From NCBI RefSeq assembly GCF_003334305.1, contig NZ_QOWS01000005.1: 64,000 bases of DNA; one strand, given 5' to 3'. A program made the position numbers and the translations under genes. This document shows, in pieces, positions 52,482 to 58,843 of the stretch (within the stretch, counting starts at the first letter, position 1; each line of letters begins with the position of its first letter). The stretch comes from Escherichia coli. Lineage in GTDB: Bacteria > Pseudomonadota > Gammaproteobacteria > Enterobacterales > Enterobacteriaceae. A model generated the notes under the pieces. It made no database searches. It worked only from the letters and a program-made list of their open reading frames with translations, and had not been told where the DNA came from.

Positions 52482-53045
52482 ATGAAACTCAAACATGTTG
52501 GTATGATTGTCGTTTCTGTGTTGGCGATGTCGTCTGCTGCGGTAAGCGCAGCCGAGGGTGATGAATCAGTAACGACCACTGTTAATGGCGGTGTTATTCA
52601 TTTTAAAGGTGAAGTGGTAAATGCCGCTTGTGCAATTGATTCAGAATCAATGAACCAAACGGTTGAGCTGGGTCAGGTTCGTTCTTCTCGCCTGGCTAAA
52701 GCGGGAGACCTCAGCTCCGCCGTTGGCTTCAATATCAAGCTGAATGATTGTGATACCAATGTTTCCAGTAATGCAGCTGTTGCATTCCTGGGTACTACTG
52801 TCACCAGTAATGACGATACGTTAGCGCTGCAGAGTTCAGCGGCAGGCTCTGCCCAAAATGTCGGTATCCAAATTTTGGACCGTACGGGTGAGGTATTAAT
52901 ACTTGATGGTGCCACTTTTAGCGCTAAAACTGACTTGATTGATGGCACGAATATACTGCCGTTCCAGGCTCGTTATATTGCACTCGGGCAGTCCGTAGCT
53001 GGTACTGCAAACGCAGATGCGACCTTCAAAGTTCAATATCTATAA
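52482..53045 (+). CDS. Type 1/F9-like fimbrial major subunit (FimA family, 187 aa)
   Basis: ORF 52434..53045; signal peptide [23 protein letters not shown], conserved Cys pair, C-terminal ...[13 protein letters not shown] ribosome-binding site before ATG 52482. Confidence 0.8.
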
Positions 53046-53086
53046 TTCAATATTAAGGTGGCTATACGTCATCTGAAATTGAAACA

Positions 53087-53115
53087 GGGTGTGTGTGGCA
53101 TGGTTACGCACACCC
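53087..53115 (+). terminator. Intra-operon stem-loop after the major subunit gene (probable partial terminator)
   Basis: Hairpin with stem GGGTGTG / CACACCC about 40 nt after the subunit stop; this is a common arrangement in chaperone-usher operons. Confidence 0.4.
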
Positions 53116-53396
53116 GAGCAATTCACCAATGTGAATCTCATTATTAATGAGGAATGGTTTGTATTTGGAGCACTATGAAAAATCACATAATATCTACACG
53201 ATCAATAAACAACAGTAGTTAAATTTACTGTTATTTAAAATATTTACTTTGTAGTAAGGTTTTCCTATTAAAAGAGAACCAACATTTTTTACAAACGCAT
53301 TAAGTCTGGAAACCCGGCGACTCGCCAATGTATTAGCAACATTTATCGATTGTCTGATGTAACGGTTTTCCCGCTTATCCTCTTAACACATGGAGA

Positions 53397-54116
53397 ATGC
53401 ATCAGATGCAAACTACGCGTACCCCCTACTCTATTTCCTTTATGGCGACAGTGTTACTTTTATTGCTCTTTGCTTGCCATAGCACCGTTGCCAACGCAGC
53501 TGTCGCACTGGGTGCGACGCGGGTAATTTATCCGGCAAACCAGAAACAGGTTTTATTGCCTGTCACGAATAATGATCCTGCCAGTGTCTATCTCATTCAA
53601 TCATGGATAGAAAATTCAGGTGACCAAAAAGACACCCAGTTTGTCATTACCCCACCGCTTTTTTCCATGCAAGGTAAAAAAGAGAATACGCTGCGGATAA
53701 TCAACGCCACTAATCATCAGTTACCAGGCGACCGTGAAAGCCTGTTCTGGGTGAATGTTAAAGCTATTCCTGCTATGGAAAAAGACCAGAAGAATGAGAA
53801 TACATTACAGCTGGCAATTATTAGCCGCATAAAAATGTTTTATCGCCCCACGAACCTGGCAATGGCACCTGAAGAAGCGCCTGCAATGCTTCGGTTTCGT
53901 CGCAGCGGTAGCAAACTCACGCTTATTAATCCAACGCCCTATTTCATTACCGTAACAAATATGAAAGCAGGAAATAGCAATCTCCCAAACACCATGGTGC
54001 CGCCAAAAGGTGAAGTATCGGTGGATATCACGCATGCTGCAACCGGGGATATCAGTTTTCAGACGATCAATGATTACGGTGCATTAACTCCGCGTATTAA
54101 GGCAACCATGCAGTAA
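53397..54116 (+). CDS. Periplasmic fimbrial chaperone (PapD/FimC family, about 236-239 aa)
   Basis: ORF 53397..54116; signal peptide; chaperone sequence VALGATRVIYPANQKQVLLPVTNN...; start among the first three Met codons is uncertain. Confidence 0.8.
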   Translation: MHQMQTTRTPYSISFMATVLLLLLFACHSTVANAAVALGATRVIYPANQKQVLLPVTNNDPASVYLIQSWIENSGDQKDTQFVITPPLFSMQGKKENTLRIINATNHQLPGDRESLFWVNVKAIPAMEKDQKNENTLQLAIISRIKMFYRPTNLAMAPEEAPAMLRFRRSGSKLTLINPTPYFITVTNMKAGNSNLPNTMVPPKGEVSVDITHAATGDISFQTINDYGALTPRIKATMQ

Positions 54117-54157
54117 GCCAGTGACCTAATTAATAATAAACTCAATCGGAATTAATA

Positions 54158-56809: not shown

Positions 56810-56822
56810 GGAACAATAGATT

Positions 56823-57353
56823 ATGAAATACAATAACGTTATTTTCCTCGGTTTATGTCTGGGGTTAACCACCTATTCTGCTTTATCCGCAGATAGCGTT
56901 ATTAAAATTAGCGGGCGCGTCCTCGATTATGGCTGCACAGTCTCATCGGATTCGCTTAATTTTACCGTAGATCTCCAAAAAAACAGTGCCAGACAATTTC
57001 CAACGACCGGTAGCACAAGTCCAGCCGTCCCTTTTCAGATTACGTTAAGTGAATGCAGCAAAGGGACAACGGGGGTTCGGGTTGCATTTAACGGTATTGA
57101 GGATGCAGAAAATAATACTCTGTTGAAACTGGATGAGGGAAGCAATACGGCCTCCGGTTTAGGTATAGAAATACTGGACGGAAATATGCGTCCGGTGAAA
57201 CTGAATGACCTTCATGCCGGGATGCAGTGGATCCCACTGGTACCAGAACAGAACAATATTTTGCCTTACTCCGCTCGTCTGAAGTCAACTCAGAAGTCCG
57301 TCAATCCGGGACTGGTGAGGGCTTCGGCAACCTTTACCCTTGAATTTCAATAA
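56823..57353 (+). CDS. ydeS: Fimbrial minor subunit (FimF-like, 176 aa)
   Basis: ORF 56823..57353; signal peptide, Cys pair, C-terminal ...ATFTLEFQ. Confidence 0.75.
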   Translation: MKYNNVIFLGLCLGLTTYSALSADSVIKISGRVLDYGCTVSSDSLNFTVDLQKNSARQFPTTGSTSPAVPFQITLSECSKGTTGVRVAFNGIEDAENNTLLKLDEGSNTASGLGIEILDGNMRPVKLNDLHAGMQWIPLVPEQNNILPYSARLKSTQKSVNPGLVRASATFTLEFQ

Positions 57354-57365
57354 TCAGAGTCAGAT

Positions 57366-57869
57366 ATGAAAAGACTTCACAAGAGGTTCCTGTTAGCTAC
57401 GTTTTGCGCGTTATTCACAGCAACTCTCCAGGCCGCCGATGTCACTATCACTGTTAATGGTCGGGTAGTCGCTAAACCCTGCACTATTCAAACCAAAGAA
57501 GCTAACGTTAATCTCGGGGATCTTTATACGCGCAATCTGCAACAACCTGGTTCTGCATCTGGCTGGCACAATATTACTTTGTCATTAACCGATTGTCCGG
57601 TTGAAACAAGTGCAGTGACGGCAATCGTGACAGGTTCAACTGACAATACGGGTTATTACAAAAATGAAGGTACTGCCGAAAATATTCAGATAGAGCTGAG
57701 GGATGACCAGGATGCGACGTTAAAAAATGGCGATAGCAAAACGGTTATTGTTGATGAGATCACTCGTAATGCACAGTTTCCACTTAAGGCAAGAGCTATC
57801 ACGGTGAATGGAAACGCAAGCCAGGGAACGATCGAGGCGCTAATCAATGTGATCTACACCTGGCAATAA
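57366..57869 (+). CDS. ydeR: Fimbrial minor subunit (FimG-like, 167 aa)
   Basis: ORF 57366..57869; signal peptide, pilin fold, C-terminal ...ALINVIYTWQ. Confidence 0.75.
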   Translation: MKRLHKRFLLATFCALFTATLQAADVTITVNGRVVAKPCTIQTKEANVNLGDLYTRNLQQPGSASGWHNITLSLTDCPVETSAVTAIVTGSTDNTGYYKNEGTAENIQIELRDDQDATLKNGDSKTVIVDEITRNAQFPLKARAITVNGNASQGTIEALINVIYTWQ

Positions 57870-57928
57870 CGTCGATTCGATTTTCTTAGCCTTCTTTTTA
57901 AATCAATTTTTTAACCTTAGGATATATC

Positions 57929-58843
57929 ATGGGTAAAACAATCAGTATAAAGGTCCTGTTCGGTATTTATCTTCTATTAATGGCAGGTAAAGTTTTTGCC
58001 TTCAGTTGTAATGTCGATGGCGGGTCAAGTATTGGAGCTGGTACAACCTCTGTTTATGTTAATCTCGACCCTGTAATACAGCCGGGCCAGAATCTGGTTG
58101 TAGACTTGTCTCAGCATATAAGTTGCTGGAATGATTACGGCGGCTGGTACGACACTGATCATATAAACCTGGTACAAGGCTCAGCTTTCGCAGGCTCTCT
58201 ACAGTCATATAAAGGATCGCTGTACTGGAATAATGTGACCTACCCCTTCCCGTTGACGACAAATACCAACGTATTGGATATTGGTGATAAGACACCGATG
58301 CCATTACCGTTAAAACTCTATATTACCCCAGTCGGGGCGGCCGGTGGAGTTGTCATAAAAGCCGGGGAAGTTATTGCCCGTATTCATATGTATAAAATTG
58401 CAACATTAGGAAGCGGAAATCCGCGTAATTTTACGTGGAATATTATTTCAAATAACAGTGTTGTTATGCCAACAGGCGGCTGCACTGTTGATAGTCGTAA
58501 TGTCACCGTGGATCTCCCGGACTTTCCTGGAAGCGCAGAAATACCCCTTGGCGTATATTGCTCAAGCGAACAAAAGCTCTCATTTTATCTTTCGGGTGCC
58601 ACCACTGACAGTGCCCGACAAGTGTTTGCTAACACAGCACCTGATGCAACAAAAGCATCGGGAGTGGGTGTCTCTCTGATGCGTAATGGAAAAATACTGG
58701 CTACGGGAGAAAATGTCTCCCTGGGAACAGTAAATAAAAGCAAAGTACCTCTGGGTTTAAGCGCAACCTATGGACAAACAGGAAACAAGGTTTCAGCCGG
58801 AACCGTCCAGTCAGTCATTGGTGTCACTTTTATCTATGAATAA
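57929..58843 (+). CDS. ydeQ: Two-domain fimbrial tip adhesin, FimH-like (F9/Fml-type adhesin, 304 aa)
   Basis: ORF 57929..58843; clearly alignable with FimH along its length (for example [29 protein letters not shown] vs Fim[31 protein letters not shown]-terminal ...[10 protein letters not shown] vs ...SIIGVTFVYQ). Confidence 0.8.

Follow-up and report, generated by a model that had tools for sequence, protein, structure and literature searches.

The window analysed here, a stretch of 64,000 nucleotides (nt) of Escherichia coli DNA (contig NZ_QOWS01000005.1, assembly GCF_003334305.1), contains between positions 52482 and 58843 six genes on the plus strand which almost certainly represent the chromosomal F9 (Fml, ydeQRST) chaperone-usher pilus operon of this species in its complete ancestral form. 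The list of open reading frames (ORFs), together with the NCBIfam and Pfam families of their products, gives the order major subunit, chaperone, usher, FimF-like subunit, FimG-like subunit and two-domain adhesin. This order had already been read from the DNA in the original prediction, which had also described all frames, those of usher and chaperone included, as intact; indeed, the six ORFs are uninterrupted, and the F9 operon of strain CFT073 likewise comprises six genes, functional ones, each of which equals its counterpart in the window in length. The designation "F9/Fml-like" used at that time names the right family but is understated. Because of the identity to the CFT073 proteins (97.5-98.8%), the equal lengths and a lectin domain which is 100% identical to that of the crystallised FmlH, we regard the operon as F9/Fml itself and not as a relative of it.

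Following the operon order, the identity to the CFT073 proteins amounts to 98.4% for the major subunit (184 of 187 residues), 97.5% for the chaperone (230 of 236), 97.7% for the usher (863 of 883), 98.3% for YdeS (173 of 176), 98.8% for YdeR (165 of 167) and 98.0% for the adhesin (298 of 304), and on the DNA level 97% identity is found over positions 52070-62200. Over positions 1-62200 the window shows 100% identity to the chromosome of an orangutan faecal isolate, E. coli strain A7 (NZ_CP028767.1), and according to the annotation of this record the operon is located between hipBA on its 5' side and ydeP on its 3' side. The published F9 locus has the same flanking genes and the same gene order, and the cloned CFT073 operon (plasmid pF9) yields fimbriae (PMC3966885). 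As far as the sequence itself goes, no feature contradicts the identity as F9/Fml.

The operon described here and F9/Fml of uropathogenic E. coli (CFT073 c1931-c1936; FmlH of UTI89) have the locus, the six genes, the gene lengths and the CFT073 promoter in common. Differences to CFT073 are restricted to allelic substitutions and to a variable region 5' of the promoter, where CFT073 carries an insertion of about 2.5 kb with a short-chain dehydrogenase/reductase (SDR) oxidoreductase, a LysR fragment and an esterase. That the region 5' of the F9 operon is variable is also known from the literature. Between hipA and the F9 promoter the window harbours, at 51841-52049 on the plus strand, a remnant of the helix-turn-helix regulator gene yneL, which is frameshifted and N-terminally truncated; K-12, too, has only the yneL pseudogene remnant in this region. 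The comparison with the F9 fimbriae of enterohaemorrhagic E. coli O157:H7 was confined to the promoter, and here the genomes match positions 52150-52320 at 100%.

The adhesin consists of a 24-residue signal peptide, a lectin domain (mature residues 1-160) and a pilin domain. Its lectin domain matches that of the crystallised UTI89 FmlH (PDB 6AOW and related entries, 5LNE) at 100% identity over all 160 residues; every difference to the FmlH of CFT073 falls into the signal peptide or the pilin domain. An identical sequence of the lectin domain implies an identical pocket. In the FmlH structures the terminal galactose (Gal) of the Thomsen-Friedenreich (TF) antigen touches F1, D53, K132 and N140, while Y46 forms a cap over the pocket, with R142 at its rim (Kalas et al., PMC5866590). 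All six of these galactoside-contact residues, checked one by one, are present in the adhesin of the window.

With FimH the adhesin can be aligned from end to end at 50% identity, namely 71 of 156 positions (46%) in the lectin domain and 67 of 120 (56%) in the pilin domain. This agrees with the earlier claim of a full-length alignment to FimH with a diverged pocket, and the comparison of the pocket residues with FmlH and FimH which had been proposed along with it specifies the divergence: of the FimH pocket only F1, N46, D47, Y48 and D54 (FimH numbering) are kept, whereas at the other positions of the mannose pocket and the tyrosine gate Q133 is replaced by K132, N135 by A134, Y137 by L136, D140 by N140 and F142 by R142. 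The glycan specificity that had been expected to be different is indeed different from that of FimH, but it is not new, as it has already been established experimentally for FmlH. Known ligands are Gal, N-acetylgalactosamine (GalNAc) and Galβ1-3GalNAc, the TF antigen (PMC5866590), for F9 also Galβ1-3GlcNAc, that is, galactose linked to N-acetylglucosamine (PMC3966885), and for F9 of O157:H7 plant xyloglucan (PMC7766294). An adhesin with a specificity unlike that of the published FmlH is hardly conceivable to us: besides the general expectation expressed in the original prediction nothing speaks for it, and both the identity of lectin residues 1-160 to the crystallised protein and the position of the CFT073 differences outside this domain speak against it.

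In K-12 only the distal part of the operon is left, as had been claimed. The comparison with K-12 suggested for mapping the deletion (blastn against a K-12-type genome and MG1655) reveals one clean event which removes positions 52305-55582, i.e. 3278 bp, with the junction TTGTTGTG followed by GAACC and a microhomology of 1 bp. Lost are the leader from about +74, the genes of the major subunit and the chaperone, and usher codons 1-475. The remaining 408-codon ydeT fragment, ydeS, ydeR and ydeQ are each 99% identical to the genes of the window, the proteins YdeS, YdeR and YdeQ with 174 of 176, 166 of 167 and 301 of 304 identical residues, respectively. Without major subunit, chaperone and the 475 N-terminal usher residues, K-12 is not able to assemble the pilus, and the disruption of the f9 operon in K-12 has been published (PMC3966885). 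K-12 and the window thus share the four distal genes, the usher gene in K-12 as a fragment, and the promoter, as the F9 promoter and the first approximately 73 nt of the leader are kept in K-12 and identical to the window. Because the deletion places this segment (window 52196-52304) directly 5' of the usher fragment, the ydeT'-ydeSRQ remnant may still be transcribed from the F9 promoter.

Among 5426 complete E. coli genomes 3563 (about two thirds) have a near-full-length locus, defined as at least 80% of window positions 51500-59200 in one place, a count made by sequence coverage. Some part of the locus is found in almost every complete genome, and 1375 of the 5426 (about a quarter) share the exact K-12 junction. 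These counts agree with the published proportion of 60-61% of strains with an intact F9 operon (PMC3966885).

The structure and distribution of the operon, the K-12 deletion, its regulation, the structure of the adhesin, its glycan ligands and even drug-like inhibitors have all been published, so the operon as such is already known. The value of the assignment lies in the annotation: in RefSeq these genes carry generic labels only ("fimA", "fimbrial protein", ydeQ/R/S), and they can now be named as F9/Fml genes with an FmlH adhesin. In addition, the host here was no pathogen but a commensal from the faeces of an orangutan. The lectin domain known from two human uropathogens, UTI89 and CFT073, is thus found in identical form in a commensal of a non-human primate, which fits F9 being an ancient adhesin of the core genome and not a pathotype-specific factor.

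Table 1. Features of the F9/Fml operon and its 5' region; positions refer to the window
Feature	Position	Strand	Description
F9 promoter	52196-52225	+	-35 TAGTCA, 18-nt spacer, -10 CATAAT; consensus scan and CFT073 alignment
5' leader	52232-52481	+	A+T-rich, about 250 nt; ribosome-binding site GGAG at 52475-52478
Major pilin (F9 major subunit, FmlA; FimA-like)	52482-53045	+	187 aa; NCBIfam FimA equivalog 174 bits (cut-off 140)
G+C-rich hairpin	53087-53115	+	13 bp; just 3' of the major-subunit gene, within the 360-nt non-coding spacer 53046-53405
Periplasmic chaperone (FimC-like)	53406-54116	+	236 aa; Pfam PapD_N and PapD_C
Outer-membrane usher (FimD-like)	54158-56809	+	883 aa; Pfam PapC_N, Usher and PapC_C; NCBIfam usher model 988 bits
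Minor subunit YdeS (FimF-like adaptor)	56823-57353	+	176 aa; NCBIfam FimF 239 bits (cut-off 200)
Minor subunit YdeR (FimG-like)	57366-57869	+	167 aa; NCBIfam FimG 257 bits (cut-off 220)
Tip adhesin FmlH (YdeQ)	57929-58843	+	304 aa; Pfam FimH_man-bind and Fimbrial

PapD_N and PapD_C give the chaperone the two Ig-like domains of the PapD type. Its closest PDB entries are FimC and SfaE (E about 1e-87), and in the alignment with FimC the motifs GATR and NVKAIP, which hold the subunit-anchoring residues Arg8 and Lys112, are kept; for its gene an alternative ATG is possible at 53397. In the usher the Pfam domains span residues 43-195 (PapC_N), 213-795 (Usher) and 804-868 (PapC_C), in agreement with the usher layout of an N-terminal domain, a plugged β-barrel and a C-terminal domain. 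The NCBIfam scan gave no match for the adhesin at E <= 1e-5, and its family was therefore taken from Pfam and the PDB search. An Rfam search found no match inside the operon. Downstream of the adhesin gene no plus-strand match to the terminator consensus was detected, and since 58844-58985 folds no more stably than shuffled sequences (z = -0.4), we do not claim a terminator at this position.

Type 1 fimbriae (fimAICDFGH, with FimH) and F9 have the chaperone-usher architecture, the subunit order and the fold of the two-domain tip adhesin in common. They differ in that type 1 fimbriae have a mannose pocket, fimI and the phase switch fimB/fimE/fimS, while F9 has a galactoside pocket and is controlled by H-NS and temperature (PMC3966885, PMC5866590). 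Considering the NCBIfam names FimA, FimF and FimG, the RefSeq label fimA for the major-subunit gene and the Pfam domain FimH_man-bind on the adhesin, one could take the operon for a second copy or a variant of the mannose-specific type 1 (fim) operon. We consider the probability of this as practically nil, because the adhesin shares no more than 50% of its residues with FimH and has changed mannose-pocket positions, and because the genes are located between hipBA and ydeP and not at the fim locus, without fimI, fimB, fimE or a fimS-like element. According to the annotation of the identical A7 record there are no recombinase genes (fimB/fimE) beside the operon, and no suitably spaced pair of inverted repeats that could form a fimS-type invertible element was found upstream of it. 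A remnant of fimI or another small gene was sought in the 360-nt spacer behind the major-subunit gene, where only short ORFs of at most 58 aa are present.

Some points nevertheless weigh against the assignment of the six genes to F9/Fml as a functional pilus operon. The chaperone stays under the cut-off of the NCBIfam FimC equivalog (257 versus 327 bits), and the usher just misses that of its model (988 versus 995 bits); scores below the cut-offs are, however, what one expects when the fim genes are paralogues. The proteins deviate from those of CFT073 by about 3 to 20 substitutions each. Finally, for this strain we infer the expression, the assembly of the pilus and the binding of glycans from CFT073 and UTI89.

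The operon might also be intact but effectively cryptic: permanent silencing, or a crippling missense change specific to the strain, would then prevent pilus formation under natural conditions. H-NS represses F9, and in wild-type CFT073 it is not detected at 37 °C (PMC3966885), the leader region is rich in A+T with a G+C content of 34%, the locus is prone to decay within the species, about a quarter of the complete genomes having the K-12 deletion, and the usher and the chaperone carry 20 and 6 substitutions, respectively, in comparison to CFT073. Nevertheless we find a cryptic operon unlikely. All six frames, the promoter and the ribosome-binding site are conserved, the substitutions are few and scattered like those of allelic variation, the -35 hexamer TAGTCA is if anything nearer to the consensus than the TAGTCG of CFT073, and CFT073 does express F9 at 20 °C (PMC3966885).

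Taking the operon as a functional F9/Fml operon, the mechanism established for F9 and for its type 1 paralogue would probably apply in this strain, too. A sigma-70 promoter situated about 250 nt 5' of the major-subunit gene would drive all six genes; H-NS would keep their expression silent at 37 °C, and growth at about 20 °C or an hns mutation would lift this silencing. The subunits would cross the inner membrane by the Sec pathway, and the FimC-like chaperone would fold them by donor-strand complementation and hand them to the FimD-like usher. By donor-strand exchange the usher would then add FmlH as the tip, YdeR, YdeS and finally the long rod of major subunits; the donor-strand pathway is established for type 1-like chaperone-usher pili. 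With a wide and shallow pocket formed by F1, D53, K132 and N140, with Y46 and R142 at the rim, the FmlH lectin domain is predicted to bind glycans with β-linked terminal Gal or GalNAc (Galβ1-3GalNAc, Galβ1-3GlcNAc) and not mannose.

The CFT073 promoter was mapped by rapid amplification of 5' cDNA ends (5'-RACE) to a -35 TAGTCG, an 18-bp spacer and a -10 CATAAT, with a G as start site 251 nt 5' of the ATG (PMC3966885). Aligning this region with the window places the equivalent G at 52232, which is 250 nt 5' of the ATG, as the CFT073 leader has one extra base; the last base of the -35 hexamer is the sole difference in this element. The G+C content of 34% mentioned above refers to positions 52000-52499. 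In CFT073 H-NS binds to the leader region, and F9 is repressed at 37 °C and expressed at 20 °C or in an hns mutant (PMC3966885); by homology, this binding and the response to temperature can presumably be carried over to the operon of the window. The experiment with an hns deletion, also named as a check in the original prediction, was published for F9 of CFT073 in 2014 (PMC3966885).

Around the -10 hexamer and the start-site G we found a perfect 11-nt inverted repeat, TAAATAACATG / CATGTTATTTA, with its arms at 52209-52219 and 52234-52244. None of 100 shuffles of the window gave a comparable match, and the repeat is unbroken in CFT073, in MG1655 and in the possum strain A4. Such a repeat could be the operator of a dimeric repressor and add a specific control on top of the silencing of F9 by H-NS and temperature, yet we give this idea only a small chance. 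It is weakened by the right arm, which has one uncompensated change each in the ST131 strain 2822 and in Z0117EC0056. Nearly all genomes share at least 95% identity across the promoter region, which leaves little variation for judging covariation of the arms. In the excerpts of the F9 promoter-mapping work (PMC3966885) the repeat is not mentioned.

Another structural element follows the major-subunit gene. The RNA of positions 53040-53140, which includes the G+C-rich hairpin, folds with -39.3 kcal/mol (z = -6.4), and none of 200 shuffled sequences is as stable. Except for one base in the loop the hairpin is kept in CFT073. It may act as an attenuator or as a stabiliser of the messenger RNA, setting the mRNA ratio in favour of an excess of major subunit.

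Outside the operon some further features of the window deserve mention. Upstream of hipBA, at 44312-49732 on the plus strand, an intact gene for an autotransporter of the ECSE_1600 family with 1806 aa is encoded, the counterpart of which in K-12 is the frameshifted pseudogene yneO. Beside a cluster encoding a phosphotransferase system (PTS), a 6-phospho-β-glucosidase and a porin, a regulator gene of the GntR family is located on the minus strand at about 15459-16157; the identical A7 record annotates this gene as a pseudogene interrupted by an internal stop, and in CFT073 it is intact. A full-length Rfam match to the Hfq-binding small RNA STnc560 (282 bits) lies at 12704-12917 on the plus strand, just downstream of dgcZ on the same strand, and overlaps the mgtS/mgtT region of the opposite strand.

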